NCBI GenBank assembly: GCA_036351295.1
Contig: JAZBOT010000110.1
Coordinates: 3,567 to 67,566 of the forward strand
Length of the DNA stretch: 64,000 nt
Origin: Gammaproteobacteria bacterium
GTDB taxonomy: Bacteria; Pseudomonadota; Gammaproteobacteria; Steroidobacterales; GCA-2729495
Reading direction: 5' to 3'
Position numbers and translations under genes: made by a program. Below, piece after piece: positions 8,148-36,937 of the stretch. How positions within the stretch are numbered: position 1 is the first letter of the stretch; each line of letters begins with the position of its first letter. The notes beneath the pieces were generated by a model that saw only the letters and a program-made list of their open reading frames with translations, ran no database searches and was not told the DNA's origin.

Positions 8148-8163
8148 TGGCACGCGACTTGCT
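8148..8163 (+). promoter_or_regulatory. sigma-54 (-24/-12) promoter upstream of fliK
   Basis: TGGCACGCGACTTGCT = TGGCAC-N5-TTGC; 36 nt upstream of the fliK GTG start. Confidence 0.75.
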
Positions 8164-9551: not shown

Positions 9552-9681
9552 TGCCGGGCGCAGGCCAATAATTTGGCGACGGCCCTTGCGCCCAGCCAAG
9601 CGATTGGCAGCCGCTCGTCGGGCCCCGAATTTAGATATGTAACTAGCTGTTTTAAATAAATAAAAATTGTCTGCCTCAGGT

Positions 9682-9697
9682 TGGCACGAGTCTTGCT
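9682..9697 (+). promoter_or_regulatory. sigma-54 (-24/-12) promoter upstream of fliL
   Basis: TGGCACGAGTCTTGCT = TGGCAC-N5-TTGC; preceded by an AT-rich tract (about 9629-9670); 46 nt upstream of fliL ATG. Confidence 0.75.
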
Positions 9698-17334: not shown

Positions 17335-18504
17335 ATGAATATTAAGCGGTATATCGCATCGGACATGCGCCACGCGCTGCAGATGATACGCGATGAGCTC
17401 GGGACGGATGCTGTCATTCTGGAGACTCAGCGATCGAGCGAAGGCGTCGAGGTCTCGGTGGCGGTCGACTTTGACCCGGCGCTGTACGTCAAGCCGGAAC
17501 CGGTAGCCCCCGCGCGGCCTGCACCGGCACAGCCTCCTGCCGCTGAGGCGCAGCCCGCGCCCGCAGAGCCGGCCGCGGCGCCGGTCAACGCGCGTGACGA
17601 TTCGGTGCGCTGTTTACTTGAGGCACGCCTTTCGCGCCTGATCTGGGACGATATGCGCGCCCGCAACCCGGCTGCGACAAACATCATGCGGAACCTGAGC
17701 CGGCTTGGGCTGACACCCGCCGCAGTCGAGCAGGTGATGTCGCGCGCTCCCGACCTTAGTACCCTCGACAACACGTGGTCGGAGCCGCTCAAATGGCTCG
17801 CCGACAGTATCCCCGTCAGCGGCCAGGACCTGATCATGCATGGGGGTGTGTTCGCTGTTGCAGGTCCAACCGGCGTTGGCAAAACGACTTCCATCGCGAA
17901 GCTGGCAGCCCGTTACGCGTTGCAGAACGGTGTGGCGGGCCTCGCGCTGGTGAGCACCGACAACTACCGGATCGGTGCGCGTGAGCAGCTGGAGACCTTC
18001 GCCCGCATTATTGGCGCACCGGTGTACAGCGTGCCCGATGCCGCGCAGCTGGATGCGACGTTGCGTACCCTGAGCGACAAAAAACTGGTGTTGATTGATA
18101 CCGCTGGCATGAGTCAGCGCGACAGCCGTATGGTCACGCAGCTGGACAGCTTGCAGCGCGCCGCAACGCGCATCGACGTGCTGCTGGCGTTACCCGCCAA
18201 TGTCCAGACGGAGACAGCCCACGAAATCGTCCGCGTATTTGCGTCGGCGCAGCCACTTGGCTGCATCCTGACCAAAGTTGACGAAGCGACTTCGCTGGGA
18301 GGAGTGCTGTCTGCCCTGATGGACGCGCGGCTGCCCCTTGCGTACATCTGTGACGGCCAGCGCGTGCCGGAAGACCTCCACCTCGCTGTCCAGCGCTTGA
18401 CGTGGCTGGTGAAAACCGCGATGGACTGTATGCGTGAGCACAGCCCGCGGCTCGGTAAGGACGAACTGGCAGAGCGCTTTGCCAAGGTGGCGATCAGTGC
18501 TTGA
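17335..18504 (+). CDS. flhF: Flagellar placement SRP-type GTPase FlhF
   Basis: 389 aa; MNIKRYIASDMRHALQMIRDELG N-terminus; G motifs GPTGVGKTT, DTAGMSQRD, TKVDE. Confidence 0.92.
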   Translation: MNIKRYIASDMRHALQMIRDELGTDAVILETQRSSEGVEVSVAVDFDPALYVKPEPVAPARPAPAQPPAAEAQPAPAEPAAAPVNARDDSVRCLLEARLSRLIWDDMRARNPAATNIMRNLSRLGLTPAAVEQVMSRAPDLSTLDNTWSEPLKWLADSIPVSGQDLIMHGGVFAVAGPTGVGKTTSIAKLAARYALQNGVAGLALVSTDNYRIGAREQLETFARIIGAPVYSVPDAAQLDATLRTLSDKKLVLIDTAGMSQRDSRMVTQLDSLQRAATRIDVLLALPANVQTETAHEIVRVFASAQPLGCILTKVDEATSLGGVLSALMDARLPLAYICDGQRVPEDLHLAVQRLTWLVKTAMDCMREHSPRLGKDELAERFAKVAISA

Positions 18505-19381
18505 GGGCAGCGCGATTGTGCGTGATCAGGCTGACGGGCTACGCGAGCGGGTGACCCGGCGGCCCGTTAAAGTTATTGCTGTAACGGGGGGTAAGGGCGG
18601 CGTGGGCAAGACCAATGTCTGCGCGAACCTGGCGCTGGCAATTGCGTCGTTGGGTCGCCAGGTCATGGTCCTCGATGCCGACCTTGGCCTGGCAAACGTT
18701 GACGTGCTTTATGGCTTGCAGCCGCGGATGACACTCGCCGATGTCATCCGCGGGGAGTGCCTGCTCACGGATGTAGTGCTGGACGGGCCTGGCGGAGTTC
18801 GGCTGGTGCCGGGTTCGTCCGGGGTCAGCGAGATGGCGCACCTCGATGCCGCAGGTCTGGCCGGGATCGTGCACGCGTTCAGCGACTACAACGACAGTCT
18901 GGATGTGCTGCTGATCGATACCGCACCGGGTATTACGCATGACGTCTTGCGCTTTGCGGAAGCCGCTCACGAGGTGCTGGTGGTGGTCCGTGATGAACCG
19001 ACCTCGCTCACCGACGCTTACGCGGTCGTGAAAGTGCTGAGCATGGAGCGCAACGTGCAGCGCTTCCGGGTAGTCACCAACATGACGCGCGGTGCCGGGG
19101 ACGGGGTGGCTCTCTTTAACAAGCTGGCCCGGGTCACCGATCGGTTTCTGAACGTGTCGCTGCACCATGCCGGCAGTCTGCCTTTCGACGAGCGCGTCGG
19201 GCGCGCTGTGCAGCAGCAGCGGCCGTTTGTGGCCGCCTATCCGACCAGCATGGCGGCCTTGTCGATGCACCGGCTCGCGGAGCGTGCCGACAGCTGGGAT
19301 ATCCCGGCGCAGGCGCGCGGCAATATTGAGTTCTTCCTGGAGCGTCTGATCGGATTGCCGCGGGCGCCTGCTGCGGTTTAA
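18497..19381 (+). CDS. flhG: MinD/ParA-type flagellar number regulator FlhG (FleN)
   Basis: Deviant Walker A GGKGGVGKT; N-terminal DQADGLR (DQAxxLR) motif. GTG 18497 or GTG 18518 start; track ORF from 18434 overlaps flhF. Confidence 0.88.
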   Translation: MLEGSAIVRDQADGLRERVTRRPVKVIAVTGGKGGVGKTNVCANLALAIASLGRQVMVLDADLGLANVDVLYGLQPRMTLADVIRGECLLTDVVLDGPGGVRLVPGSSGVSEMAHLDAAGLAGIVHAFSDYNDSLDVLLIDTAPGITHDVLRFAEAAHEVLVVVRDEPTSLTDAYAVVKVLSMERNVQRFRVVTNMTRGAGDGVALFNKLARVTDRFLNVSLHHAGSLPFDERVGRAVQQQRPFVAAYPTSMAALSMHRLAERADSWDIPAQARGNIEFFLERLIGLPRAPAAV

Positions 19382-19383
19382 CG

Positions 19384-20121
19384 ATGGATCCCGCAGCCGA
19401 GTACAAATCCGCCGCGGTCACGTCCGCCGACGAGCTGGTCGAAACCTACGCGCCGCTGGTCAAACAGGTTGCGCTGCACTTGCGCGCACGGCTGCCGGCT
19501 GGGACTGAGCTGGACGACCTGATTCAGGTTGGTCTTATGGCGCTGCTGGATGCTGCCCGCAACTACTCGGCGGCGAAAGGCGCCAGTTTCGAAACCTATG
19601 CACGTATTCGACTGCGGGGTGCCATGCTGGACGAGGTACGCAGCAACGACTGGGCACCGCGCTCGGTCTACAAGAAGCAGCGTGACCTGATTGCAGCGAC
19701 GCGCCGGGTGGAGAACCGGACCGGGCAGGAGGCGCAGTCCGCTGAGGTGGCACAGGAAATGGGGGTCAGCCTCGATGAGTACCATGGCATCCTGGCAGAC
19801 GTATCGATGACACGCTTTTTTAGCCTGGACCAGCTGATGGATGATACCGAATACGACCCGCAGAGTCCGCCAGGCGAGCCGGGTCCGCGGAACGAACTCG
19901 AGAACGACGAATTTCAGGCAGCGCTGGCCGCCGCGATTCAGGAGCTGCCGGAACGCGAGGGTCTGGTGCTTTCGCTGTACTACGTGGAGGACCTGAACCT
20001 GAAGGAAATCGGCGCGGTGCTCGGTGTGACCGAATCGCGCGTATCGCAAATACACTCGCAGGCCGTTGTCCGGCTGCGGGCCCGTCTGGGTGATGAGTGG
20101 AGTGACAACAATGATGATTGA
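19384..20121 (+). CDS. fliA: Flagellar sigma factor FliA (sigma-28)
   Basis: 245 aa; sigma-70 family regions 2-4; region 4.2 LNLKEIGAVLGVTESRVSQIHSQAV; follows flhG. Confidence 0.93.
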   Translation: MDPAAEYKSAAVTSADELVETYAPLVKQVALHLRARLPAGTELDDLIQVGLMALLDAARNYSAAKGASFETYARIRLRGAMLDEVRSNDWAPRSVYKKQRDLIAATRRVENRTGQEAQSAEVAQEMGVSLDEYHGILADVSMTRFFSLDQLMDDTEYDPQSPPGEPGPRNELENDEFQAALAAAIQELPEREGLVLSLYYVEDLNLKEIGAVLGVTESRVSQIHSQAVVRLRARLGDEWSDNNDD

Positions 20122-20530
20122 ACCGGATTACTGGCTCGCGGCAGCGGCAGCGGGTAGCCTGATACTTGTCCTGCTGGCCTGCCTGCGCGGTTGGCGCACG
20201 CGCCGGCAGCTGCACCAACGCCTCGCCGCTTGCGAACAATCGCTGGGACAAGTCGAGCAGGCGATTCAGTCGTCGGCGACGATCTTTGCGGCGCTGGAGG
20301 CACGACTTGATGCCGCCTGTGAGCAGATGGACCAGCTGAGTATGCGGCAGGGCGCGATCGACGCCACCGGGCACAAGGCCGCTTTCCAGCAGGCGATCGC
20401 ACTCATGCGGCGCGGGGCCAGTGCGGAAGAACTCGTCTCGGTCTGCGGCGTGAGCCAGGGCGAGGCCCGGTTGATACAGACCATGTACGGCACGCCGGCG
20501 CCGGCCGATGCATCAGCCCGGGCGAATTAG
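20111..20530 (+). CDS. Small membrane-anchored protein, DUF2802-like (family normally at the end of che/mot clusters)
   Basis: 139 aa from ATG 20111, overlapping fliA stop by 11 nt; one N-terminal TM, coiled coil, C-terminal EELVSVCGVSQGEARLIQTMYG. Family assignment is from memory. Confidence 0.55.
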   Translation: MMIEPDYWLAAAAAGSLILVLLACLRGWRTRRQLHQRLAACEQSLGQVEQAIQSSATIFAALEARLDAACEQMDQLSMRQGAIDATGHKAAFQQAIALMRRGASAEELVSVCGVSQGEARLIQTMYGTPAPADASARAN

Positions 20531-20557
20531 TGAATTACTTCACACTTCCGCCGATAT
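20531..20557 (+). promoter_or_regulatory. Candidate sigma-28 (FliA) promoter upstream of the HDOD-GGDEF gene
   Basis: TGAATTAC-N11-GCCGATAT versus TAAAGTTT-N11-GCCGATAA; -10 element matches 7/8, -35 only about 4/8. Confidence 0.35.
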
Positions 20558-20695
20558 ACTGCCAAAAAATGTGACTCAAGGCCGGGTCACCGCCGGCGCA
20601 AGTCTTTACGTTACGGTAAATGGCGCTGGCGCAGCGCCGTGAGCGAGAACCCCCGTGGGGCGCGGGTGGCGCAGACCGACGTTAAGGACACAACC

Positions 20696-22216
20696 ATGGC
20701 CGAACTATCTCCGGAACTTCTGGATAAACTTAAAAACTGCAAGAATCTGCCGACCCTGCCGAAAGCGGCCATGCGTATTATCGAAGTCGCGCAGCAGCCT
20801 GAAATCGACATGGGCATGGTGGCCGACGCGGTCAGCGCCGACCCGGCGATTGCCGCCAAGGTGATGCGCATTGCCAACTCCGCTTTGTATGCCCGCCGGC
20901 GGGAAAGCAGCAACCTGCGCCAGGCGCTCATTACGCTGGGTTTGAATGCGACGCTGACGTTGGCGCTCAGCTTCACCCTGGTGAACAAGTTGCGCAAGGA
21001 CCCCACCAAGGGTTTCGACTTCAACCAGTACTGGAAGCGCGCGATTCTGGCGGGCTCATGGTCACGCATGCTGGCCAGCGAAATCGATTTCGTCGGCGCC
21101 GAAGAGGTCTTCCTGGTCTCCCTGCTCCAGGACATCGGCATGCTGGCCGTAGACCGGGTTGCGCCCGAGGTCTACCAAGATATCTCGCCGTTTGAGATAG
21201 CTCACGTAACGCTCGAGCGCCATGAGGCTAACCAACTGGGCGTTAACCATTGCGACGTGGGTGCGTGGTTGCTGGCCGACTGGAATATGCCTGAGATGCT
21301 GGTCGAAGCGGTGCGTCACAGCAACGATCCCAGCGGCGCCAGCGCCGCCGAGGGGCGGCAAACCTTGGTCAAAATCACCACGCTGTCGGGCTTGCTGGCG
21401 GACAGCTGCATTGCCCCCAGCGGGGCGCGCAACATGGGTGAACTGGGCAGTCTGGTCAAGGCGCACCTCAACCTTGACCCCGAACGGCTGGCGCACCTTT
21501 ATGACATGCTGGTCGAGCAGGTTCCCGAGGCGGAGTCGGTGTTTGAGACCGATTTGATGAATTCCGAGGAGATCGAGACGCTGATGGAGACAGCTCGGGA
21601 GACCCTGCTGGTGCGCAACCTGAGCGTATTCTCACAAGCCGCTGAGCTGGTGGAGCGGGCGGAATCGCTGCAGAGCGAGAACATGCAGCTCAAGCAAGCC
21701 AACCGTCTGGATGAGCTCACGCGGGTCTACAACCGCCGGCATTTCGAGGATGCGCTGGGTGAAGAATACGAGTTTGCCGCGAAACACGGTTCATCGCTGA
21801 GCATGATTTTTGTCGATATTGATTATTTTAAAGCCGCGAACGATACCCATGGCCATATGTCCGGTGACAATGTGCTGAAGAGCATCGCCGATTTGCTGAC
21901 CGGTACAGTGCGCGGTAGCGACATTGTGGCGCGCTACGGGGGCGACGAGTTCGTGATTATTCTCCCGGGCACGGATCGCGAGCGGGCGAAACTCGTGGCG
22001 GGACGCATCGTGGAAGGTGCCCGCGAACTGAAAGTGCGCGCGGAAAGTGGTGAGCTGATGCGCGTCACGCTGTCGATTGGCACAGCGACCCAGGATGCAC
22101 AGCATGATTTTGGCAGCTCTGCCGGCCTGATTCGCGCTGCCGATGCCGCGCTCTACGAGTCCAAGAGCAGGGGCCGCGACTGCCATACGGCGTTTGATGC
22201 CAGCGCGGCGGCCTGA
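20696..22216 (+). CDS. HDOD domain - coiled coil - GGDEF diguanylate cyclase
   Basis: 506 aa from ATG 20696 (AAGGA at 20684-20688; track ORF from GTG 20639); HDOD LPTLPKAAMRIIEVAQ...DPAIAAKVMRIANSALY...LITLGLN; intact GGDEF (RYGGDEFVIILPG) with RxxD I-site (RGSD) 5 residues upstream. Confidence 0.85.
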   Translation: MAELSPELLDKLKNCKNLPTLPKAAMRIIEVAQQPEIDMGMVADAVSADPAIAAKVMRIANSALYARRRESSNLRQALITLGLNATLTLALSFTLVNKLRKDPTKGFDFNQYWKRAILAGSWSRMLASEIDFVGAEEVFLVSLLQDIGMLAVDRVAPEVYQDISPFEIAHVTLERHEANQLGVNHCDVGAWLLADWNMPEMLVEAVRHSNDPSGASAAEGRQTLVKITTLSGLLADSCIAPSGARNMGELGSLVKAHLNLDPERLAHLYDMLVEQVPEAESVFETDLMNSEEIETLMETARETLLVRNLSVFSQAAELVERAESLQSENMQLKQANRLDELTRVYNRRHFEDALGEEYEFAAKHGSSLSMIFVDIDYFKAANDTHGHMSGDNVLKSIADLLTGTVRGSDIVARYGGDEFVIILPGTDRERAKLVAGRIVEGARELKVRAESGELMRVTLSIGTATQDAQHDFGSSAGLIRAADAALYESKSRGRDCHTAFDASAAA

Positions 22217-22222
22217 TTGGTC

Positions 22223-23326
22223 TCAGGTATTGTCGAGGCCGATGCCGTAGCGTTTCATTTTCTCTGACAGCGTGGTGCGGCGTATCTGCAGCCGCTCTGC
22301 CGCATGCGCCACGATGCCGCCGGCATCGCGGAGCGCGGCGTCAATAAGCGCCACTTCGATGCTCTCCAGATAGTCTTTCATCGGCATGCCCCGGCAGGCC
22401 GCAATCAGGTCGTCGGTGCTGGTTGCCGGCGCCATCTCGTCCTGTTCCGAGCCGCCGGCGGTGTGCGTGTGCGGCTGGTCGGTACTGTAACGGGCGGGCA
22501 GCAGCCGCTGGTCGACCCTGCCACCCGGGTACAAAATGCACAAACGCTCCATCAGGTTGGACAGCTCACGGACGTTGCCGGGCCAATCGTAGCCGGCCAG
22601 CGCCTGGCGCGCGGACGGCGTGAGGTTGATCAGCGTCAGGCCTGCCTTTGCGCAGCGCTCGAGGCTGCTGTCAATCAGTTCATCGAGGTCTTCCAGCCGC
22701 TCCCGCAGCGGCGGCAGCTCGACCGGAAACACGTTGAGCCGGTAGTAGAGGTCTTCGCGAAACTGATTGCGGCTGATTTCTTCCTCGAGGTTGCGGTGCG
22801 TCGCCGCAATAATGCGAACATCGGCCGACCGGCTGACGTTGCTGCCCACCCGCTCAAACACGCGTTCCTGCAGAACTCTGAGCAGCTTGACCTGCATCGA
22901 CAGGCTCATGTCGCCAATTTCGTCGAGAAACAGCGTACCGCCCTCGGCGGCTTCAAAGCGACCGACGCGGGCCGTCACCGCGCCGGTGAACGAGCCCTTC
23001 TCGTGACCGAATAATTCGCTTTCCAGCAGCTCGGCAGGGATCGCCCCGCAATTGACGGGGACAAAGGGTTTGTCGCGCCGCGGAGACATTTCGTGGATGC
23101 ACCGGGCCGTCCACTCTTTACCCGTGCCCGACTCCCCCGTGATCAGAACATTGGTATTGAAAGCCGCGACCTGCTCGATCAGTCGCCGCACCACCACCAT
23201 TTTGCGGCTATGTCCGGTGGGAAAATAGGCCAGTTGAGGCTGCAGAGCCGGCGGGCCGGAGGGTGCGGCGGCAGCCGTCGCCGGGCCGGAAAGTTCCGTT
23301 GCTGTGAGCTCGCTACGCTTGGTCAT
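22223..23326 (-). CDS. FleQ/FlrA-family sigma-54 activator lacking any N-terminal regulatory domain (AAA+ plus Fis HTH only)
   Basis: 367 aa. Only about 60 residues precede Walker A GESGTGKE and the ORF cannot extend further upstream. [65 protein letters not shown] and [22 protein letters not shown] closely resemble P. aeruginosa FleQ as I recall it. C-terminal [23 protein letters not shown]. Confidence 0.85.
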
Positions 23327-23738
23327 GCGGCGCTGCGGTCATGCCGCATTGCGGCGATTAACGGCCATCCTTGGTCGTCTGCGGGCATTGTGGTTGTCCC
23401 CTCCGGATCCACGCCGTTTGTAACCGTATATGGTCTTTCCTGACCACATACCTATAAGCATCCATTCTTATATTGTTTTCGGGTGAAGACGGCTGTTTAC
23501 AAAAGCCGCTCAATCCATAACTGTAAAATATACCGGCAGCTTTCGGGCTGCGCAATACTTTTCTCAATGTTTTTTAAGTATTTACTCGCGATTTGTCAGT
23601 CGCGTGCGGCTTGCCGCAGCGCGGCTGCCCAAACAACCCTCCGCGTATTGTCAAATTGTGATCTGCATCAAGTTTGTTCATGAGCCTGCTCGCTAGTATG
23701 AGCCTCACTTGCAGCCGCAGTACCCTGAGGATAAATGG

Positions 23739-24614
23739 ATGGACTCAGAAGCAATCAACCCGACCCCCACCGACGCCGCGACCACGCAGGTGGCCTTCCG
23801 GTTTGTGCAGAAAATGGCGGTGGATCTCGACGCTAGTGATGACCTGAAGCTGCCCGGCTTCCCGGAAGTGGTGGCCAAGCTGCAGAAAGCGCTGAGTGAC
23901 GAGCACGGCTCGCTGAAGCAGGTGGCGGTTATCATCAATTCGGAGCCGGCGCTCGCGGCCAGGATGCTGCAGCTGGCCAATTCGGCCGCGTTTCGCCAGT
24001 CCGCCGAACCCGTCGGTGAACTGCGTACGGCGGTCGCCATGCTGGGCTTTAACGTCGTCCGGGCTACCGCAACCAACTTCGCAATGGCGCAGCTGCAGGA
24101 GCAGGACTGGCTGCGGCCGCTGCACCCCGAGCTGCAAAAAATGTGGCGGCAGGCCATCCTCGTGGCCGCCACTTCGTATGTTGTGGCGAAGCATCTGGAA
24201 GCCATGCCCGCCGACAAGGCGATGGTCGCCGGATTGTTCCATCAGCTGGGCATGCTGTATCTCCTGACCGTTGCGTACCGCGATGACAAGGCGCTGCTCG
24301 ACGACCCGGCCTGGCCGCATATTCAGGCCGAGTGGCATCCGACCGTTACGCGCGCCATCCTCGAATCGTGGGGGTTGCCGGAGGACGTGACCTATGCGAC
24401 AGAAAGTCAGGATGCCGTGCTTGACGGCCAAACCGAGAATCTCGACCGGCTCTCGCTGGTGGTCGCCGCCGCCAAATTCTTTGTCTACGAACCCGCTGCT
24501 GCTGATGCTGCGGACAGCCCGCTGAACGACGTGAAGTTTTCGGGGCAGTCTTTTGCTGATCTGGTCGAGCAGAACCGCAGCGAGATCAAGCAGGTGCTGG
24601 CCACGCTGTCGTAG
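23739..24614 (+). CDS. Stand-alone HDOD domain protein
   Basis: 291 aa from ATG 23739 (GAGGA at 23728-23732; track ORF from TTG 23709); LPGFPEVVAKLQKAL...EPALAARMLQLANSAAF...AVAMLGFN HDOD signature; degenerate HD (FHQLGML). Confidence 0.8.
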   Translation: MDSEAINPTPTDAATTQVAFRFVQKMAVDLDASDDLKLPGFPEVVAKLQKALSDEHGSLKQVAVIINSEPALAARMLQLANSAAFRQSAEPVGELRTAVAMLGFNVVRATATNFAMAQLQEQDWLRPLHPELQKMWRQAILVAATSYVVAKHLEAMPADKAMVAGLFHQLGMLYLLTVAYRDDKALLDDPAWPHIQAEWHPTVTRAILESWGLPEDVTYATESQDAVLDGQTENLDRLSLVVAAAKFFVYEPAAADAADSPLNDVKFSGQSFADLVEQNRSEIKQVLATLS

Positions 24615-24629
24615 CCGCAGCGCAGTCCG

Positions 24630-25079
24630 ATGCACCCGCAGCAACCGACCACTTTCGCTGTCGCGGTGGCACTGCTGCTGGCTGCGCTGATCCCGGCCGG
24701 CTTTACACGACCGCTCGCGGCGGGAGTCCTGGGTTATGAAAACCGGCAAATTCCCAAGCAGGTCGCGCTGATCGTCGAGGACCGGCGGGTCATCGCGTCC
24801 AATACCCGGCTGGGGCGCATGGATCCGGTATTGCTGGAAGCCGACGAGGTGATCGAGACCACGGCTGAGGCCGAGGCTGTACTGCTGGTGATCACCAACC
24901 ACCGGTTGCTGGGCTACGGGCCTGTGATCGGCTGGCGCATGCTGGCCCGCGAGCCCGGCGAGCCTGTCGAGTCAGTCGTGGCCGCGGACTTCGCCGCTTT
25001 CGTTACCACCGGGGCGCGCTACCTTAACTTCAACGCGGCTAACGGCATCTGGGCTGCGGAAGCCCGCAGCTCGCGCTAG
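24630..25079 (+). CDS. Hypothetical exported protein with three internal ~38-aa repeats
   Basis: 149 aa; signal-like N-terminus FAVAVALLLAALIPAG; GC3-rich codons; repeats ALIVEDRRVIASNTRLG / LLVITNHRLLGYGPVIG / AFVTTGARYLNFNAANG. Confidence 0.55.
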   Translation: MHPQQPTTFAVAVALLLAALIPAGFTRPLAAGVLGYENRQIPKQVALIVEDRRVIASNTRLGRMDPVLLEADEVIETTAEAEAVLLVITNHRLLGYGPVIGWRMLAREPGEPVESVVAADFAAFVTTGARYLNFNAANGIWAAEARSSR

Positions 25080-25230
25080 CGCGTCGCGATCCGCCGGCAG
25101 GTCTTATGTCATCTTGTGAAGCAGGTCGCAGTTAGTCCCGCAGCGCGCCTGTAAATTAGTCCACTACAGGGCGTGTATTGGGCATACACGGTCTGGGGCG
25201 TTACAGCTACTGACATAAGCGGAATACACC

Positions 25231-26013
25231 ATGGATCTGGCAACACTCATTGGCCTCGCATGCGGCCTGATCATTATCGTCGCTGCGATGGTCGTCGGTT
25301 CTTCGATCGGCATCTTTATCAACGTTCCCAGTGTCCTGATCGTGCTGGGCGGTACCGCGGCTGCCACACTGATGAAGTTCCCGCTCAGCGACTTTATTTA
25401 TGCGCTTAAAGTCGGAGTCAAACTGTCGTTTGTTAATTCGAACAACCAGCCGAACGAGCTTATTAAGCGCATCATGGACCTGGCCGACAAGGCGCGTAAA
25501 GGCGGTCTCCTGGTTCTTGAGGAAGAACAAATCGACAACACCTTTTTGAAGCGTGGCGTGCAGCTCGGTGTTGACGGCTATGATCCGGAGCTGGTCAAGA
25601 AGTTGCTGCAGAACGAAATGGATTTCGCTGTGGAACGCCAGCAGCTCTCCGAGCAGATTTTTCGCGGCATGGGTGATGCGGCACCGGCCTTCGGCATGGT
25701 GGGCACGCTGGTCGGTCTGGTCCAGATGCTAAGTAACATGAGTGATCCCAGCTCCATCGGCCCGTCCATGGCGGTTGCGTTGCTCACTACGCTTTACGGG
25801 GCCATTATTGCCAACCTGATCTGTATCCCGATTGCCGACAAGATCAGCATTCGCAATGCTGAGGTTATCAAGGTGAAGGGGCTGCTGATTGCCGGTGTCG
25901 GCGGAATTCTCGACGGCGATTCGCCGCGTATTATCGAGGATGTCATGAGCAGCTATCTCGCCGACGACCACGGCGCAGCGCCGGTGGCCGAGCCTGCGGC
26001 TGAGGCCGGCTAA
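25231..26013 (+). CDS. motA: Flagellar stator protein A (PomA/MotA family)
   Basis: 260 aa; MDLATLIGL...SIGIFINVPSVLIVLGG and MVGTLVGLVQMLSNMSDPSSIGPSMAVALLTTLYGAI closely parallel Vibrio PomA as I recall it. Confidence 0.9.
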   Translation: MDLATLIGLACGLIIIVAAMVVGSSIGIFINVPSVLIVLGGTAAATLMKFPLSDFIYALKVGVKLSFVNSNNQPNELIKRIMDLADKARKGGLLVLEEEQIDNTFLKRGVQLGVDGYDPELVKKLLQNEMDFAVERQQLSEQIFRGMGDAAPAFGMVGTLVGLVQMLSNMSDPSSIGPSMAVALLTTLYGAIIANLICIPIADKISIRNAEVIKVKGLLIAGVGGILDGDSPRIIEDVMSSYLADDHGAAPVAEPAAEAG

Positions 26014-26031: not shown

Positions 26032-26790
26032 ATGGCGAGGAAAGCGATAGCGAGTTCCGGCGCGCCGGCGTGGATGGCGACCTTCGCCGATCTGATGGCG
26101 CTGATGATGTGCTTCTTCGTGCTGTTGTTCTCGTTCTCACAGATCTACGAGACCAAGTATCGGATGATGGTCGACTCCATGTCGAAGGGATTTGGCAGCG
26201 AGACGACGATTCGTCGGGCCAGTATGGCATCGCCCACGATGGGCACTCCCAGCGCCATTAATTCGCGGCTGAACCAGTTTCAGGCGCCGAGCCGCAGCTC
26301 GCGCTCGCGCAACCGCGTGCTGACGACACAGGCGGCGGAGTCCACCGCAGCGCGGGTCAAACTGGCGCTAAAAACCGACCTGGATGCGGGCAAAATAGCC
26401 GTTGAGACCCAGGGCAACACCGTCATCATCCGACTCCCGGAGGAGGTCGCTTTCCCGCCCGGCAGCGATGTCGTGTCGGCTGAGATCATCGGTATTATCG
26501 ACCGACTGGCCCCCGCCATGCGCGCATCCGAAGGGGTGATCATGGTGACGGGACACACCGACGACCAGCCCATCGCATCGTCCGAGTTTTCGTCCAACTG
26601 GGAGCTCTCTGCGGACCGCGCGGTGGCTGTGATCGAAGAGATTATGGCCTACACCGGTATCCGCGAAGAACGGTTCGCCGCGGTGGGCCATGGCGCCACT
26701 AAACCCATTGCGCCTAACGATACACCGGAGAATCGCGCCAAAAACCGGCGCGTGGAAATCACGATTGTCGAGAATCAGGATGCCCGCTAG
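26032..26790 (+). CDS. motB: Flagellar stator protein B (PomB/MotB family, OmpA-like C-terminus)
   Basis: 252 aa; WMATFADLMALMMCFFVLLFSFS with conserved channel Asp; C-terminal peptidoglycan-binding motif GHTD...NWELSADRA...NRRVEI. Confidence 0.9.
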   Translation: MARKAIASSGAPAWMATFADLMALMMCFFVLLFSFSQIYETKYRMMVDSMSKGFGSETTIRRASMASPTMGTPSAINSRLNQFQAPSRSSRSRNRVLTTQAAESTAARVKLALKTDLDAGKIAVETQGNTVIIRLPEEVAFPPGSDVVSAEIIGIIDRLAPAMRASEGVIMVTGHTDDQPIASSEFSSNWELSADRAVAVIEEIMAYTGIREERFAAVGHGATKPIAPNDTPENRAKNRRVEITIVENQDAR

Positions 26791-27772
26791 CGACGCCGTG
26801 GGAGCAGCGCGCGCGCCGACGACCGCCACAGCCCGCGGGCGCATGTTTGCGCTGGTCGAAGTGGCGGCAGGCCACGGTGGTCTCGCCAGCCGCCTGTTTA
26901 GTGGCTTCGTGGTTGGCCTGATTATTCTGAACGTCCTCGCGGTTATCCTCGAGTCGAATCGCAGTCTCTACGACGATTTCGCGCAGTATTTCTCAGCTTT
27001 CGAAATATTTTCCGTTGCGGTGTTTACCGTTGAGTATTTTGCGCGTGTCTGGGTCGCGCCGGAATATCCGGCGCTGCGAGGGATGTCGGCGTGGCGGGCG
27101 CGGCTGCGCTACATCAGCAAGCCAATGGCCCTGATCGACCTGCTGGCCATTGCGCCGTTTTATCTGGCTCTGGTAGTCCCCATCGACTTGCGCTACCTGC
27201 GCTTGTTCAGGCTGTTGCGCTTGCTGAAGCTGTCCCACTATTTCGATGGGCTGCACATGTTCGTGAAAGTGCTGGGACGCGAGCTCGGGGCGATCGCGGG
27301 CGCGCTGATGACCCTCGTCGTGCTGATCATCATCTCGGCCTGCCTGATGTTCTCTATCGAGAACTCGGCCCAACCCGGACAGTTTGACAGTGTGATGCAG
27401 GCAATCTGGTGGTCGGTGGTCACGTTGACCACGGTGGGCTATGGCGACATTACGCCGGTGACTTTCCTTGGCAAGCTGGTCGCGATGATCATCATGCTGC
27501 TCGGTATCTGCACGATGGCGCTGCCGGCCGGTATTCTGGCCGCCAAGTTTACCGAGGAGCTGCAGCTGCGTCGGGAGCTGATGAATTCCCGCGTGCATGA
27601 AGCGTTGCGCGACGGGGTGCTGGATGACAACGACCTGCGCAGCATCGTCGACCTGCAGGAAAAACTGCGCTTGCCCCCCGAAGTCGTTCAGCAGCTGGTC
27701 GCGCTGAACACGCAGGCGCGCTACGTCAATAATTTTTGCCCGCACTGCGGCGAGCGGCTGGCCACGGACTAG
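26780..27772 (+). CDS. Voltage-gated (Kv-type, 6TM) potassium channel
   Basis: S4 LRYLRLFRLLRLLKLSHYF with Arg/Lys at every third position; selectivity filter TLTTVGYGD. ATG 26780 overlaps motB stop by 11 nt (alternative ATG 26843; track ORF from 26690); C-terminal CPHCGERL. Confidence 0.85.
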   Translation: MPASDAVGAARAPTTATARGRMFALVEVAAGHGGLASRLFSGFVVGLIILNVLAVILESNRSLYDDFAQYFSAFEIFSVAVFTVEYFARVWVAPEYPALRGMSAWRARLRYISKPMALIDLLAIAPFYLALVVPIDLRYLRLFRLLRLLKLSHYFDGLHMFVKVLGRELGAIAGALMTLVVLIIISACLMFSIENSAQPGQFDSVMQAIWWSVVTLTTVGYGDITPVTFLGKLVAMIIMLLGICTMALPAGILAAKFTEELQLRRELMNSRVHEALRDGVLDDNDLRSIVDLQEKLRLPPEVVQQLVALNTQARYVNNFCPHCGERLATD

Positions 27773-27947
27773 GCTGAGCGGCCGGCCCCAACGACGCATA
27801 GCCCGTATCCAAACTCTGCCCGGCGATCGTGAAGGTGCCGGCGCCGTGCGCGTGGCCGGCGTTTCCGCTAATATCACGGGCTCGGTAGAACAATGACGGT
27901 CGCACTGGCTGGATATGCCTGCCCATGCCCACCGCAAGGAAACTAAC

Positions 27948-28826
27948 ATGACGATTAAATTTGAAACCAAGGTCGACTTTAAGAACCCGATCTGGAACCG
28001 TGATGCGTGGTCGCGCATGCAGGGCGACCTCAACCCCGAAAACGAAAAAATTTGCGACGTGCGCGGCGTTATCATGGGCGTGAAGCCCGGCGAGGCCGTC
28101 AAAGAACTGTGTGGTTTTGAGGCCTTTCTGGCGACCCGTCTGGTACCGCAGGAAGACGGCACCATCCGCCGCCTGAATCGCGAAGTGATTTTTTATACCA
28201 ACCTGCGCACCGGGGATATTATCGATACCTGGACCAATCCCTGGACGGGTGAAGAAGTGCGGGTGGTGCAGGTGGCCAATGACCCGTTCAACTACACCAT
28301 CAGTGAGTGGCTGATCCTCGCGCCGGAAGATTTCAAGAGCGCTGACCCGGAGAAATCCAAGCCGCGCAAGCTGCCGCTGATTTTCCCGTGGTATGCCTTT
28401 GGCCCGGACATCCTGAGCCTGTCCACGGACATGCACCTGTATTACCCCAACTCACTCGATCCGCAAAAGTTCGTCCGGGAGTCTTCGGGACCGATGGTGC
28501 AGGTATCCGAGCTCATGCGTTACAACGTGAGTCGCGCCGACCTTGAGAACCCGGCACTCACTTCGGTGCAGTACACCGGCACCTGGATGCGCGTGACCCC
28601 GTGGCTGCCGTGGATGCTGATGGGGCAGGAAGAAGGTCATGTGATCTACAACGGCGCGATGTGCAGCAGCCCCACCACGGATATCATCTCGCCGCAGGCA
28701 CTGGCCTATGCGCAGGAGCACCATCCGGAGTTCCTGACGGCGCCGACCGAAGACTACGGTCCGAGTCATTCCAGCCTCGAAATCTATGCACGGACGCAGG
28801 AGCCGGCGCCGCCGCGAGCCGCTTAG
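27948..28826 (+). CDS. Conserved hypothetical protein (possibly DUF1838 family)
   Basis: 292 aa from ATG 27948 (AAGGA at 27936-27940); GC3-rich coding; followed by a clear terminator. Family name is from memory only. Confidence 0.5.
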   Translation: MTIKFETKVDFKNPIWNRDAWSRMQGDLNPENEKICDVRGVIMGVKPGEAVKELCGFEAFLATRLVPQEDGTIRRLNREVIFYTNLRTGDIIDTWTNPWTGEEVRVVQVANDPFNYTISEWLILAPEDFKSADPEKSKPRKLPLIFPWYAFGPDILSLSTDMHLYYPNSLDPQKFVRESSGPMVQVSELMRYNVSRADLENPALTSVQYTGTWMRVTPWLPWMLMGQEEGHVIYNGAMCSSPTTDIISPQALAYAQEHHPEFLTAPTEDYGPSHSSLEIYARTQEPAPPRAA

Positions 28827-34329: not shown

Positions 34330-34627
34330 CGTGTCGGGTGCACCTGTAAAGCTGTCGTTACGCGCGCCTGCGCGGGCGCCAAAGATTACAGCAAGCGCGG
34401 CCCGGCGCAAGCTGGATTATGGTGAATGGCGGGGTTGCGGCCGGGCCCCTTGCTGTATTCTGCATAACTTGATGCGTCTTCGCCGCGACCGTCGATGTGC
34501 GCGTAACCTACTGACATACGGCCCTTTTGTGCGGCACGTCAAATAATGATAACAACACGATGCTGTCAGCTCTTCGCACTTGCTGCCCACCTGTAGTCGA
34601 CCGGCGTCGCCGGCCTGCAGGCTGCCC

Positions 34628-36937
34628 ATGATCGCTTATGGTCCAGTCATCCTGGCTGCGCTCATCGCGGTCGCTTTCGCGATCGCCTGGGTGTATTCGC
34701 GTTATGCCCTGCGCGAATACCGCAAGCGCGTTGACAAGCTGCACGGCGAAGTCGTTGAGGCAGCGGCGAACGCGAGTTTCGGCCGCCGTGTCGAGGGTGT
34801 CGATGATGTGCTGCTGGATCGTCTCGGTGCGGCCTTCAATCAACTGTTTGAGGCGCTTGAAGCCAAAGACTCGCAGTCCCGCCAGCGCGAGGACCTGTTT
34901 CTCGATCTGGCCAACGTGATGCCCGAGGTCGTCCTCGTGCATACCGATACCATCGTGTTTGCCAATGAGCGGGCGGCCGAGTTGCTCGGTGTGCCGGCCG
35001 CAGAGCTGGTGGGTCGTGCCGTGCAGGACTTGATTCGGCCGGCTTACCGCAGGTTCGCCCGGGAAATCATCAGCCAGCAGCTGGAGGGCGATAACGGCGG
35101 CAGGAGTTACGAGCTGCAGTTGATCGATGGCGACGAGCGGGCGCGTTGGGCCGAGGCAACAGGCAAACGTATTCAATTTCGCGGCCGCACGGTCGTGTTG
35201 ACCGTTGCGCGGGACATCACCTACCGAAAGAGTGTCGAGGCGGCTCTGAGCCGCGGCCGGCAGCAGGCACAAATTACGCTCGAATCGCTCGGTGAGGGCG
35301 TCATAACCACCGATACCAGCACGGTTATCGACTACATGAACGCGGCCGCGGAGAAACTCACCGGAGTAGCCCGGGAAACGGGTGTGGGGCAGCCGTTTGC
35401 GGAGGTGGTCAAGCTGGTCGACGAAGGTGACCGCCGCAGCCTTGATAACCCGGTCGCGCGTGCCCTGCAGCAGGGCAGCCGGGTCACCATGGGCCGCCGT
35501 GCACTGCTGATGCAGACTGGCGGCTCGGCGGAGTTCTCCATCGATGCAGCCGCATCACCGATTGTGGCGCCGGACCGCAGTGTGACCGGCGTGGTGGTTA
35601 TGTTGCGTGATGTCAGCGAGCTGCGGGGTATGGCTCGCGAAATGAGCTACCAGGCCACCCACGATGCGCTGACCGGACTGATTAACCGGCGGGAGTTTGA
35701 GCGTCAGGTGAACCTGGCTATGGAGGCCGCACGCAAAGACGATGAGCACCACGTGCTCTGCTACCTCGATCTCGATCGCTTCAAAGTGGTTAACGACACC
35801 TGCGGCCACGCGGCCGGCGACAATCTGCTGCGCGAGATCGCGGCAAAGCTCAGGCAGCAGGTGCGTGATTCGGACGTGGTCGCGCGGCAGGGCGGCGACG
35901 AGTTCGGCATGTTGCTGGTCGGGTGCCCGCTGCCCAAGGCCCGGCAAATTGCCGAAGACGTTTGCGACACGGTGCGCAATTACCGATTTACCTGGCAGGA
36001 CCGCATTTTCGACATTGGCATCAGTATCGGGCTCGTCGAAATCAGCAATCAGTCCAGCTCGCTTGAGGATGTGCTCAGCGCTGCCGACTCGGCCTGTTAC
36101 GTGGCCAAGCAGCGCGGCCGCGGCCGAGTGCACGTGTATTCTGCGCGTGACGAGCTGGCGGCCCGGCAGCGCGGCGAGATCCACTGGTTGCGCAAACTGC
36201 AGACCGCGCTTCGCGAAAACAGTTTCGAGCTATACATCCAGCCGATTATTTCACTGGCGGGCCGCATCCCGCGCGGTCCGGCAACAGAAGTGCTGGTGAG
36301 ATTGCGCGATGAAACTGATGGTCTGGTGCTACCGCGCGAGTTTATTCCGGCCGCGGAGCGCTATCAGCTGATCGGTGCGGTCGATCGCTGGGTTCTGCAA
36401 ACGGCGCTGGCGGCGGTTGCCAGCGGCACGATCCGGCTGCCTGACGCGCGCAGTATGGCAATCAATATCTCGGGGCAGACGATGGCCGAAGAAGGCTTTC
36501 TCGACTTTGTCGTTCAGGCCCTCGATCACACGGGCGTCAATCCTGAGCAGTTGTGCTTCGAGGTACGCGAGAGCTCGGTGCTGCGGGATATCGATCACGC
36601 GCGGCGGTTCATCGGGGTGCTGCACGGCATGGGCTGCACGTTTGGGCTGGATGATTTCGGCAGCGATGTGGGGTCACTGGCCAGCCTGCAGGGTCTCGGT
36701 ATCGACTTCCTGAAGCTCGATGGCTCCTGCACTCGCAACCTGGTGGTTGACAGCGTGAACCATGAGCTGGTGGCGGCCGTGACGCGCCTGTCGCGGGCCG
36801 TGGGTTTCAAGGTGGTGGCCGAGCAGGTTGAAGATGAGCTGACGTTCAGCAACCTGCGCCAGCTGGGTGTGAATTTTGTTCAGGGCAACTACGTAGAGCC
36901 GCCGCGTGCACTCGGCAGCCAGCCGGCAAGTAGCTGA
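34628..36937 (+). CDS. Membrane-anchored PAS-PAS-GGDEF-EAL c-di-GMP signalling protein
   Basis: 769 aa from ATG 34628; one N-terminal TM; GGDEF intact (ARQGGDEFGML) with RDSD I-site; EAL domain with EVLVR, NISGQT, GLDDFGSD, FLKLDGS motifs. Confidence 0.88.
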   Translation: MIAYGPVILAALIAVAFAIAWVYSRYALREYRKRVDKLHGEVVEAAANASFGRRVEGVDDVLLDRLGAAFNQLFEALEAKDSQSRQREDLFLDLANVMPEVVLVHTDTIVFANERAAELLGVPAAELVGRAVQDLIRPAYRRFAREIISQQLEGDNGGRSYELQLIDGDERARWAEATGKRIQFRGRTVVLTVARDITYRKSVEAALSRGRQQAQITLESLGEGVITTDTSTVIDYMNAAAEKLTGVARETGVGQPFAEVVKLVDEGDRRSLDNPVARALQQGSRVTMGRRALLMQTGGSAEFSIDAAASPIVAPDRSVTGVVVMLRDVSELRGMAREMSYQATHDALTGLINRREFERQVNLAMEAARKDDEHHVLCYLDLDRFKVVNDTCGHAAGDNLLREIAAKLRQQVRDSDVVARQGGDEFGMLLVGCPLPKARQIAEDVCDTVRNYRFTWQDRIFDIGISIGLVEISNQSSSLEDVLSAADSACYVAKQRGRGRVHVYSARDELAARQRGEIHWLRKLQTALRENSFELYIQPIISLAGRIPRGPATEVLVRLRDETDGLVLPREFIPAAERYQLIGAVDRWVLQTALAAVASGTIRLPDARSMAINISGQTMAEEGFLDFVVQALDHTGVNPEQLCFEVRESSVLRDIDHARRFIGVLHGMGCTFGLDDFGSDVGSLASLQGLGIDFLKLDGSCTRNLVVDSVNHELVAAVTRLSRAVGFKVVAEQVEDELTFSNLRQLGVNFVQGNYVEPPRALGSQPASS

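Follow-up and report, generated by a model that had tools for sequence, protein, structure and literature searches.

A short FleQ-type activator convergent with an HDOD-GGDEF gene beyond fliA in a polar-flagellum gene cluster

What could a sigma-54 activator without a sensory domain be doing between two HDOD genes, one of them fused to a GGDEF domain, just beyond fliA in a flagellar gene cluster? The question is raised by a 64-kb stretch of DNA (the window, analysed at its full length), and the segment concerned lies at the far end of a polar-flagellum cluster of the Pseudomonas/Vibrio type (FleQ -> FleSR -> FliA) from an uncultured gammaproteobacterial lineage. Domains were assigned with Pfam and NCBIfam profiles, and the view of the genome was that given by the window; related loci are referred to by their numbers (L081 and so on).

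Gene order and the end of the fliA operon

The features needed for the argument are the following:

13-28, + strand, perfect sigma-54 promoter TGGCACGGTTCTTGCT (0 mismatches), upstream of the fleS-like kinase gene
8148-8163, + strand, perfect sigma-54 promoter upstream of fliK
9682-9697, + strand, perfect sigma-54 promoter upstream of fliL
17335-18504, flhF (Pfam/NCBIfam)
18434-19381, + strand, flhG/fleN, MinD-type ATPase (Pfam/NCBIfam)
19384-20121, + strand, fliA (sigma-28; NF005413, 291 bits against a cut-off of 201)
20111-20530, + strand, DUF2802 membrane protein, probable FlrD orthologue (PF10975; open reading frame 20066-20530, probable start 20111)
20531-20557, + strand, sigma-28-like element TGAA-N15-GCCGATAT in the spacer between flrD and the HDOD-GGDEF gene
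20696-22216, + strand, HDOD - coiled-coil - GGDEF protein (open reading frame 20639-22216, probable start 20696)
22223-23326, - strand, short FleQ/FlrA-type sigma-54 activator (enhancer-binding protein, EBP), 367 aa
23327-23738, AT-rich divergent control region, short fleQ to stand-alone HDOD gene
23739-24614, + strand, stand-alone HDOD protein (open reading frame 23709-24614; NCBI start 23739, 291 aa; HDOD E 4e-34)
24630-25079, + strand, small protein with an N-terminal hydrophobic segment
25231-26790, + strand, stator pair (PomA-like 25231-26013, MotB-like 26032-26790)

The five genes previously described between fliA and the stator genes were all found in place with their domains, and coordinates and profiles agree on a divergent stand-alone HDOD gene with the stator genes downstream. 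The PomA-like protein scored 315 bits, under the NCBIfam PomA equivalog cut-off of 341, and the stator genes are referred to as a PomA-like MotA/MotB pair. The small protein, probably co-transcribed with the stand-alone HDOD gene (15-nt gap), had been described as an exported repeat protein. Its N-terminus is indeed hydrophobic; the case for a repeat is weak, the best internal self-alignment (score 38) lying within the range of shuffled sequences (24.6 +/- 4.6, maximum 50). The protein belongs to a conserved family of 104 representative clusters and has an orthologue in L081 (E 2e-34). It gave no Pfam match, and its AF2 model (pLDDT 48) was unusable.

It had also been proposed that this module replaces the che genes at their usual position, and profile searches found no che genes within the 64-kb window. 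The gene directly behind fliA encodes a protein with a DUF2802 match (PF10975, E 1.2e-11, 45 bits against a cut-off of 33.5) and a hydrophobic N-terminal membrane segment (YWLAAAAAGSLILVLLACL). By domain and gene position it is probably the orthologue of FlrD, an accessory factor in FlrBC/FleSR regulation that is encoded by the final gene of the flhA-...-fliA-...-cheW-flrD operon in P. putida (PP_4331) and V. cholerae (VC2058). The likeness lies in a small membrane protein encoded at the end of a fliA-containing string; the difference is that in the window this gene adjoins fliA, and no che, mot or par genes separate the two. In relatives, motAB still lies between fliA and flrD. Because the DUF2802 gene is an operon end of the FlrD type, the new genes are placed beyond the normal end of the cluster and not in the che slot, and the proposed replacement is not upheld.

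Sigma-54 promoters at the same positions have been described for P. putida fleS, fliK and fliL, and for the cascade to start, the one ahead of fleS has to be served by an EBP distinct from FleR. This promoter is among the points in favour of a FleQ identity for the short activator discussed below. FleQ-box-like palindromes occur ~250 bp upstream of the fliK promoter (GTCAACAAACTGAC, 7890-7903) and ~105 bp upstream of the fliL promoter (GCCAATAATTTGGC, 9564-9577); both are weak and their counts are not above chance. The sigma-28-like element, one of two matches to a relaxed pattern in 64 kb, is likewise weak and is not conserved in L081. In the divergent control region the blocks TTAACGGCCATCCTTGGTCGT, AAAATATACCG, TTGTCAWATTGTGA and CTAGTAT are conserved in L081, and neither a sigma-54 or sigma-70 consensus nor an Rfam family was found there.

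Identity of the short activator

The product of the convergent gene is made up of Sigma54_activat (residues 38-202; PF00158, E 1.9e-73), AAA_lid_14 and HTH_8 domains (Pfam). The REC-like N-domain of FleQ is absent: there is room for only 37 residues before the AAA+ domain, and a domain at the N-terminus is excluded by the stop codon ahead of the first ATG, with which the open reading frame begins. Residues 1-30 are rich in Ala, Pro and Ser and disordered in the AF2 model (pLDDT <50, 44 sequences), and relatives of the protein are 340-390 aa long. The window protein has GSFTGA as its sigma-54 contact loop; 92 of 117 relatives have GAFTGA. Among solved structures the best match was P. aeruginosa FleQ (8p53, E 4e-112; 5exx, E about 1e-112), ahead of V. 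cholerae FlrA (2.4e-98), with ZraR (8e-78), NifA (2e-75) and NtrC1 well behind FleQ/FlrA. Identity to FleQ/FlrA-type activators across the AAA+ and HTH regions is ~59% (best locus), and many family members carry the JGI annotation 'flagellar transcriptional regulator A'. Domains, reading-frame limits and top structural match thus confirm a FleQ-family AAA+ activator without a sensory domain.

Its position is unusual. The short fleQ is not upstream of fleS-fleR but ~21 kb downstream, at the opposite end of the cluster. The usual slot, from fliS/fliT to fleS, is empty in L114 (same genome as L081) and L115 (same contig as L086), where fleS directly follows fliS or fliT. N-domain-less FleQ-like genes occur elsewhere in the canonical slot (fliS/fliD - EBP - fleS - fleR - fliE; L001, L007, L016) or directly ahead of fleR (L022, L034, L037). 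Most probably the 'domain-less' protein is the FleQ/FlrA master activator that belongs to this lineage, relocated, and not an accessory regulator; a full-length FleQ may be present elsewhere in the same MAG, of which 64 kb were viewed. The structural match, the empty slot and the short FleQs occupying that slot in other genomes all speak against the additional control unit of the original prediction.

With FleQ of P. aeruginosa and P. putida and FlrA-FlaK of Vibrio the window protein shares the AAA+ sigma-54 domain, the lid and the Fis-type HTH, in a polar flagellar cluster with fleSR, flhF, flhG/fleN and fliA; with the P. putida system it also shares sigma-54 promoters ahead of fleS, fliK and fliL. 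It differs from them in lacking the REC-like N-domain, in the replacement of the LFRS 'R-switch', N186 and E330, and in the location of its gene at the far cluster end, convergent with the HDOD-GGDEF gene. EBPs that have no regulatory domain and are controlled in trans are known from PspF-PspA and HrpR/S-HrpV. The window EBP, like PspF and HrpR/S, consists of AAA+ and HTH only, so that its activity must be set by another protein or by how strongly it is expressed; in contrast to those systems the candidate partners are the HDOD proteins and FlhG, not proteins of the PspA/HrpV type.

The c-di-GMP contacts of FleQ are reportedly R144 of the LFRS motif, R185, N186, E330 and R334 (Matsuyama et al., 2016). 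In the subfamily of the short FleQ this pocket is altered, LFRS reading YFPTG, KEVVARN reading KEW·AR(Y/C), and E330 being N or S. Among the 117 homologues that share at least 60% identity, (Y/H/F)(F/Y)PTG stands in place of LFRS, V182 has become an invariant W, N186 is Y, C or A and E330 is N or S; R185 and R334 are retained. The window protein has Y34/F35 at R144/S145, the aromatic W72, C76 (Y in most relatives) at N186 and S220 (N in most) at E330, with R75 and R224 corresponding to the retained R185 and R334. As three of the five contact residues are replaced, the known c-di-GMP route to FleQ is unsupported. The aromatic changes (YFPTG, W72, Y76) fall precisely in FleQ's regulatory pocket.

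The two HDOD proteins and the conserved gene pair

The fused protein carries a full HDOD domain (PF08668, positions 1-196, E 5e-50) and a GGDEF domain (E 3e-43; TIGR00254, E 8e-49). An intact GGDEF motif and RxxD I-site had been read from its translation, correctly so (RGSD-IVARY-GGDEF). The RxxD-x5-GGDEF pattern, that is an intact active site and a canonical I-site, is kept in all six orthologues examined, and these motifs make the protein a probable diguanylate cyclase, active and subject to product inhibition. Orthologues in L081-L086 are 45-73% identical and retain RxxD-x5-GGDEF, LLQDIG and ANSAxYAxRR. The HD dyad is degenerate in 6/6 fused orthologues, reading QD (LLQDIG), and an intact His-Asp dyad is absent.

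The stand-alone protein also has a full HDOD domain (PF08668, positions 1-196, E 4e-34). Its dyad reads HQ, and in its family HQ, HG, HL and others were found, never HD (72 of 120 members, those in which the motif could be located). The two HDOD domains of the window are 24% identical to each other and are therefore distant paralogues. Homologues of the stand-alone protein at 41-45% identity are encoded beside flgN-flgM-flgA or behind cheB, far from any EBP (L116, L118, L120), and its sequence places it in a flagellar-cluster-associated subfamily.

HDOD domains are widespread and have repeatedly been linked to motility phenotypes (SadB, PSPTO_4229, PFL_0554/PFL_5871, GsmR, Cj0248). The window proteins are likened to these by kind, not by orthology, and none of them has been reported to adjoin fleQ or to form part of a GGDEF fusion within a flagellar cluster. 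The stand-alone HDOD protein PSPTO_4229 (273 aa) is close in size to that of the window and depends on two adjacent arginines (RR) for which protein contacts are predicted; the RR just after the ANSA motif of the fused HDOD is a candidate counterpart. Among solved structures, the fused HDOD is most closely related to MmoQ (E 1e-24), a REC-HDOD protein of the Methylococcus MmoS/MmoQ/MmoR system that is encoded with the sigma-54 EBP MmoR and is its presumed regulator. It is alike in having an EBP as presumed partner and differs in carrying a receiver domain instead of GGDEF and in controlling methane monooxygenase genes. SadB (YbaK-HDOD) serves, without needing a ligand, as an adaptor in the proteolysis of AmrZ, which itself regulates upstream of fleQ (PMC12075610), and the earlier statement that HDOD domains have no defined biochemical function no longer holds in full.

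An HDOD-GGDEF gene behind flrD and convergent with a short fleQ was found in all five other lineages examined (L081, L082, L083/84, L085, L086-88), with EBPs 61-77% identical to that of the window. The whole gene set recurs in L081 and the core pair in the four further lineages. Loci with a full-length FleQ (Dyella, Shewanella, Photobacterium, Pseudomonas) lack an HDOD gene beside fleQ, which counts for the linkage. The arrangement is thus not due to chance, and the objection that it might be confined to this genome falls away.

A feedback model and its alternatives

The explanation that we favour, on which, taken whole, we are evenly balanced between belief and doubt, joins a relocated short FleQ to feedback on motility control by the HDOD-GGDEF protein, with HDOD as docking module. 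fleQ would have moved from the fliS/fliT-fleS slot to the far cluster end, with loss of the REC-like N-domain and remodelling of the c-di-GMP pocket. Together with sigma-54, the short FleQ would fire the class II promoters (the perfect sites at fleS, fliK and fliL) and would be restrained by FlhG/FleN; two reports describe FleN as the anti-activator of FleQ in Pseudomonas (PMC8528422, PMC10723142). The HDOD-GGDEF gene, apparently appended behind flrD, would be expressed together with the fliA string, and its cyclase would feed the flagellar expression state back onto motility control. The non-catalytic HDOD of the cyclase may be a protein-docking or regulatory module with the short FleQ as its likeliest partner, and a direct HDOD-FleQ interaction is plausible; the degenerate dyads, the kinship with MmoQ and the examples of SadB and PSPTO_4229 favour a contact role for HDOD. 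HDOD-GGDEF would then supply in trans the control for which Pseudomonas relies on the cis domain lost here and on the standard c-di-GMP site. Like SadB and PSPTO_4229, the stand-alone HDOD probably works through protein contact, with a target in the flagellar or chemotaxis system; FleQ and the neighbouring stator operon are candidates in the window's clade.

A bolder version, offered tentatively since we consider it unlikely, makes HDODs trans-acting modules for AAA+ EBPs. The cyclase HDOD, and in the window's clade also the stand-alone one, would dock on the YFPTG/W72/Y76 pocket of the N-domain-less FleQ, replacing the REC-like domain and the c-di-GMP site and coupling local c-di-GMP synthesis to the flagellar switch.

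A real possibility, if short of probable, is that there is no direct HDOD-FleQ link. HDOD-GGDEF would be a cyclase of the flagellar regulon whose c-di-GMP acts on other effectors such as a PilZ brake, the stators or other regulators, and fleQ would be its neighbour by block inheritance. The two genes are convergent and therefore on separate transcripts, and most of the residues with which FleQ normally contacts c-di-GMP are gone. All pair-bearing loci come from related Gammaproteobacteria/Chromatiales MAGs, and the pair may have stayed adjacent because one large clade inherited the gene order at the boundary of the cluster. An HDOD neighbour is absent at the short FleQs of L007, L016, L022, L034 and L037, so that loss of the N-domain needs no HDOD partner; the stand-alone HDOD family, too, sits at various other cluster edges. 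Against this, the pair endures although the other flank of fleQ differs in every pair-bearing lineage and the presence of motAB and the spacing also vary; the aromatic remodelling coincides with the regulatory pocket; and the L001 MAG independently has an orthologous stand-alone HDOD gene directly upstream of its short fleQ.

Taken literally, the original prediction had two HDODs bracketing an accessory EBP as its sensory or partner-switch module in place of the che genes, which now looks quite unlikely. The architecture is present in the window and L081, and seven further contigs, paired by their matching lengths and one of them of 3181 bp, carry both the EBP and the stand-alone HDOD. Bracketing by two HDOD paralogues holds only in the window's clade (EBP identity of at least ~76%); at 61-69% the stand-alone gene is absent from its place beside fleQ, and among the loci examined it adjoins fleQ only in the window's clade, L081 included, and in the L001 MAG. 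The low identity of the two HDODs, the resemblance of the EBP to FleQ itself and the location after the FlrD operon end also count against it.

Coupling by convergent transcription, in which antisense read-through between the fliA-flrD-HDOD-GGDEF string and fleQ sets early against late genes without protein contact, we consider very improbable. The stop-to-stop gap is indeed short (6 nt in the window; 1, 17, 46 and 68 nt in relatives), and at the junction there is no convincing intrinsic terminator, the fold being not more stable than shuffles (z -0.26); yet in L085 an extra GGDEF-EAL gene sits between the pair, and the remodelled pocket is left unexplained. Alternatively, the short FleQ would bind c-di-GMP from HDOD-GGDEF just as P. 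aeruginosa FleQ or V. cholerae FlrA do, with site and mode of binding unchanged. This would suit the close overall match to these proteins, the conserved R185 and R334 equivalents and the cyclase gene next door, but we strongly doubt it with R144, N186 and E330 replaced throughout the subfamily and R144 (FlrA R135) reportedly essential for binding (Matsuyama 2016; Srivastava 2013).

FleQ is the model for the c-di-GMP switch between swimming and biofilm, a model that rests on its N-terminal domain and a defined c-di-GMP pocket. In a large uncultured gammaproteobacterial group FleQ is without the N-domain, its pocket is rebuilt and its gene lies beside that of an HDOD-GGDEF cyclase in the lineages examined, a pairing that amounts to a natural experiment on the rewiring of the FleQ switch. 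HDOD domains are, to our knowledge, still without a general mechanism. The pairing points to the short FleQ as a specific candidate HDOD partner, and the proteins are expressible heterologously. If true, the docking reading would be the first defined molecular function of HDOD in transcription control, and it would also explain MmoQ-MmoR.

The end of the flagellar cluster

The window (GC ≈62%) starts with a gene for a FleS-like kinase and one for a FleR-like response regulator, followed in order by fliF-G-H-I, fliK, fliL-M, fliO, flhB, flhA, flhF, flhG and fliA. The next five genes are present with the domains originally predicted:

20111–20530 (probable start 20111): DUF2802 protein, after fliA
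20639–22216 (probable start 20696): HDOD–coiled-coil–GGDEF protein
22223–23326, minus strand, convergent: sigma-54 activator (EBP), 367 aa
23739–24614, divergent: stand-alone HDOD protein
24630–25079: small ORF, with PomA-like and MotB-like genes after it

In the GGDEF domain, RGSD-IVARY-GGDEF comprises an intact active site and a canonical I-site. Both HDOD domains are there, but with just 24% identity between them the paralogues are not close kin. The five genes had been placed in the slot usually held by che genes; no che genes were found within the 64-kb window, and che, par and (in the window's clade) mot genes are absent from the fliA string, the HDOD-GGDEF and EBP genes being instead appended past the string's usual end. 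In P. putida this string ends with PP_4331, whose V. cholerae orthologue FlrD (VC2058) is a membrane protein with a stimulating effect on FlrBC/FleSR. The DUF2802 protein of the window shares with FlrD its position and a membrane segment, and its gene is probably the ordinary end of the operon. In L082, L083 and L085, comparison loci from more distant relatives, motAB still separate fliA from the DUF2802 gene.

Directly 3' of the PomA/MotB-like pair lies a gene for a voltage-gated type K+ channel (Ion_trans; 26690–27772, plus strand, probable start near 26843) with the S4 segment RYLRLFRLLRLLK and the selectivity filter TTVGYGD; the same order is seen in the relative L081 (channel at 5023–6009). 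A PAS-PAS-GGDEF-EAL protein encoded 10 kb downstream (34580–36937, plus strand) is a further c-di-GMP enzyme near the cluster. DUF1838 genes occur within a few kb of flagellar-cluster ends in several related genomes:

Window, 27915–28826: DUF1838
L081, 4005–4883: DUF1838
L082, 5–1027: DUF1838
L083, 2919–4930: DUF1838, two copies
L116, 46–1119: DUF1838

A short FleQ at an unusual place

In the EBP, Sigma54_activat begins at residue 38 and is followed by the lid and HTH_8, leaving no room for an N-terminal domain. In the AlphaFold2 model (44 family members) residues 1–30 have pLDDT <50 and the AAA+ fold is confident beyond them. The best matches among all PDB sequences are P. aeruginosa FleQ (8p53, E 4e-112; 5exx) and V. 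cholerae FlrA, far above ZraR, NifA, FlrC and NtrC1. Domain layout and PDB matches thus agree with a FleQ-family activator that lacks a sensory domain. Its homologues form a large family of 340–390 aa at 60–90% identity, all without the N-domain and many labelled 'flagellar transcriptional regulator A' by JGI; those bearing an organism name come from Gammaproteobacteria or Chromatiales MAGs. Truncation or an assembly artefact was rejected, since over 100 homologues agree in length and in a conserved YFPTG at the start of the AAA+ domain.

The matches listed in a genome-contig search with the EBP were mostly full-length FleQ or unrelated EBPs (≤59% identity), which served as comparators, and L001 and other short FleQs were taken from the same matches. 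A metagenome-contig search with FleS gave no close relative among the matches listed. N-domain-less FleQ-like genes occupy the canonical place in L001, Haliea (L007) and Thiomicrospira cyclica (L016), in the order fliS/fliD-EBP-fleS-fleR-fliE-fliF, and stand immediately ahead of fleR in a Legionellales MAG (L022), L034 and OM182 (L037). Short forms of FleQ thus recur.

The window itself begins at fleS, and the fleQ slot was read in L114, from the window's closest sequenced relative (the genome of L081), and in the more distant L115, on the same contig as L086. In both (...fliD-fliS-(fliT)-fleS-fleR-fliE...) the slot is empty. In L114 (11254–12616; GCA_942490785.1) fleR is called in two pieces, a 410-aa REC-AAA+ protein and a detached HTH_8 of 62 aa, which is a frameshift or assembly error. 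Perfect sigma-54 promoters are found in the window at three positions, the same as those noted in P. putida:

13–28: fleS
8148–8163: fliK
9682–9697: fliL

Since fleSR has a sigma-54 promoter, it needs an activator that is not FleR; within the window, the short EBP alone qualifies. The EBP is most likely FleQ, the class I activator of its lineage.

HDOD proteins next to the short FleQ

The entire set is kept in L081 (EBP 77% identical), including the stand-alone HDOD, small ORF, stator pair, ion channel, DUF1838, hldE, kdtA and tolC. In L082, L083/84, L085 and L086–88 (EBP 61–69%), fliA-(motAB)-small ORF-DUF2802-HDOD-GGDEF is convergent with the short EBP, and the far flank of the EBP differs in every one of these lineages (aminotransferase/GATase, GATase/HMA-ATPase, PHO4, unknowns). 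The proposed co-occurrence of an HDOD-GGDEF and a short EBP thus extends beyond the window's genome. The HDOD-GGDEF orthologues (45–73% identity) keep RxxD-x5-GGDEF, LLQDIG, in which the His of the HD dyad is replaced by Gln, and, beyond the ANSA motif, an RR pair. No HDOD gene adjoins the full-length FleQ loci of Dyella, Shewanella, Photobacterium and Pseudomonas. The HDOD-GGDEF/short-FleQ pair is conserved in this FleQ subfamily. Every case falls within one broad group of related MAGs, so that common descent fits as well as selection; that the pair reflects nothing but synteny and that c-di-GMP acts through other effectors is a reading of some weight, if not a probable one.

Close homologues of the stand-alone HDOD (63–86% identity) lie on contigs with close EBP homologues; seven HDOD/EBP homologue pairs are on contigs of equal length in bp, one of them of 3181 bp. 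The HDOD orthologue in L001 (E 4e-42) is encoded directly 5' of, and co-directional with, the short fleQ in its canonical slot. Homologues at 41–45% identity sit at other flagellar-cluster edges: convergent with flgN-flgM-flgA in L116 and L118, and, in a Steroidobacteraceae genome (L120/L121, 8001–9841), as two tandem genes behind cheA-cheW-MCP-cheY-cheR-cheD-cheB and convergent with flgM-flgN-flgM-flgA. The HD dyad was never found among family members in which the motif could be located. This protein is best described as a subfamily tied to flagellar clusters and adjoining fleQ only in some lineages; in the window's clade a flagellar-cluster HDOD protein is on FleQ's other side. The original prediction, in which two HDOD paralogues bracket the EBP as its sensory or partner-switch module, matches the arrangement in the window and L081 but not that in L082–L088, and taken literally is improbable.

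The 15-nt spacing from the stand-alone HDOD to the small ORF and the position upstream of the stator genes make one operon of all these genes likely. No sigma-54 promoter was found between 20.0 and 25.3 kb of the window, including ahead of the stand-alone HDOD; hence it is not obvious that the EBP drives the divergent HDOD-small-pomAB genes via sigma-54. With no Pfam match, the small ORF represents a domain family without annotation, ≈100 aa long and comprising 104 representative clusters (proteins P0390–P0493). In some members the domain is repeated two or three times in tandem, and a low-complexity protein of 967 aa has six weak partial matches. The 'repeat' character ascribed to the window's small protein is itself weakly supported, and its AF2 model (pLDDT 48) is too low to use.

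Interference by convergent transcription, across the 6 nt that separate HDOD-GGDEF and EBP in the window and the 17–68 nt in L082, L083/84, L085 and L086–88 (with a GGDEF-EAL gene inserted in L085), is very doubtful.

Regulatory pocket, regulatory sequences and a proposed feedback

When 117 family members are aligned with FleQ/FlrA of Pseudomonas, Shewanella and Photobacterium, a conserved (Y/H/F)(F/Y)PTG stands in place of LFRS, the motif holding the 'R-switch' arginine for c-di-GMP. KEVVARN has become KEW(A/T/V)AR(Y/C/A) with an invariant Trp, and E330 of ExxxR is N or S; the equivalents of R185 and R334 are retained. Three of the five c-di-GMP contact residues of FleQ (as reported by Matsuyama et al., 2016) are thus changed, by family-consistent, aromatic-rich replacements. 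Judged from the alignment, the regulatory pocket is clearly rebuilt, not decayed. With three contacts replaced across the family, canonical c-di-GMP binding by the short FleQ is without support and highly unlikely. The short FleQs L007, L016, L022, L034 and L037 lack both the YFPTG/KEW and the LFRS-type signatures; that of L001 retains FR and the Asn.

A perfect sigma-28 promoter, TCAAG-N15-GCCGATAA, lies within the 3' end of flhG, just ahead of fliA, in four relatives. The element is degraded to GCCGACAG, with no -35 element, in the window (19266–19300) and L081. A weak sigma-28-like element ahead of the window's HDOD-GGDEF gene is not conserved in L081. Two FleQ-box-like palindromes are candidate enhancer sites, their positions alone being suggestive; counts of the FleQ box and of the motif TGTCAnnnTTGTGA showed no excess over chance.

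L082, 15946–15973, L083, 16031–16058, L085, 17862–17889, and L086, 14249–14276 (minus strand): perfect sigma-28 promoter
Window, 7890–7903: palindrome GTCAACAAACTGAC, ≈250 bp upstream of the fliK sigma-54 promoter
Window, 9564–9577: palindrome GCCAATAATTTGGC, ≈105 bp upstream of the fliL sigma-54 promoter
Window, 23648–23661, plus strand: TGTCAnnnTTGTGA, ≈80 nt upstream of the HDOD start, conserved in L081
Window, 25106–25119, plus strand: TGTCAnnnTTGTGA, ≈110 nt upstream of pomA

The divergent region between fleQ and the stand-alone HDOD (412 bp) is AT-rich and conserved. Just 5' of the fleQ start codon, a 21-nt block, TTAACGGCCATCCTTGGTCGT (window 23356–23378, minus-strand fleQ leader), is identical in L081; read on the fleQ strand, it includes the ATG of a uORF of 9 codons (MAVNRRNAA) and could be a leader or regulatory element. 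Rfam, including its c-di-GMP riboswitches, gave no match at the gathering threshold or at E ≤1.

According to the model that we favour, the short FleQ, most likely as class I activator, would be controlled by FlhG/FleN and by its expression from the divergent region. The HDOD-GGDEF protein would be a product-inhibited cyclase, expressed along with the fliA-flrD string, that feeds back on the flagellar switch and docks through its degenerate HDOD. We give this feedback and docking, taken together, about an even chance; direct contact between HDOD and FleQ is rather unlikely.

The best solved-structure relative of the fused HDOD is MmoQ, which is encoded with the sigma-54 activator MmoR. To our knowledge, neither a YFPTG-type short FleQ nor the association of such a FleQ with an HDOD cyclase has been described. 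A literature search outside subscription journals found no paper joining HDOD, flagellar and sigma-54. Motility effects are on record for the HDOD proteins GsmR (Xanthomonas), Cj0248, PFL_0554/PFL_5871, SadB and the stand-alone PSPTO_4229, whose inhibition of motility requires R84/R85, predicted protein-contact residues. SadB is a ligand-independent adaptor in AmrZ proteolysis (PMC12075610), and a census of 2010 counted 28 HDOD-GGDEF fusion proteins.

The arrangement is a variation within the FleQ system and not categorically new. What differs is an N-domain-less, pocket-remodelled FleQ, moved to the cluster end and conserved beside an HDOD-GGDEF cyclase, and this pairing suggests a specific partner for HDOD domains that can be put to the test.
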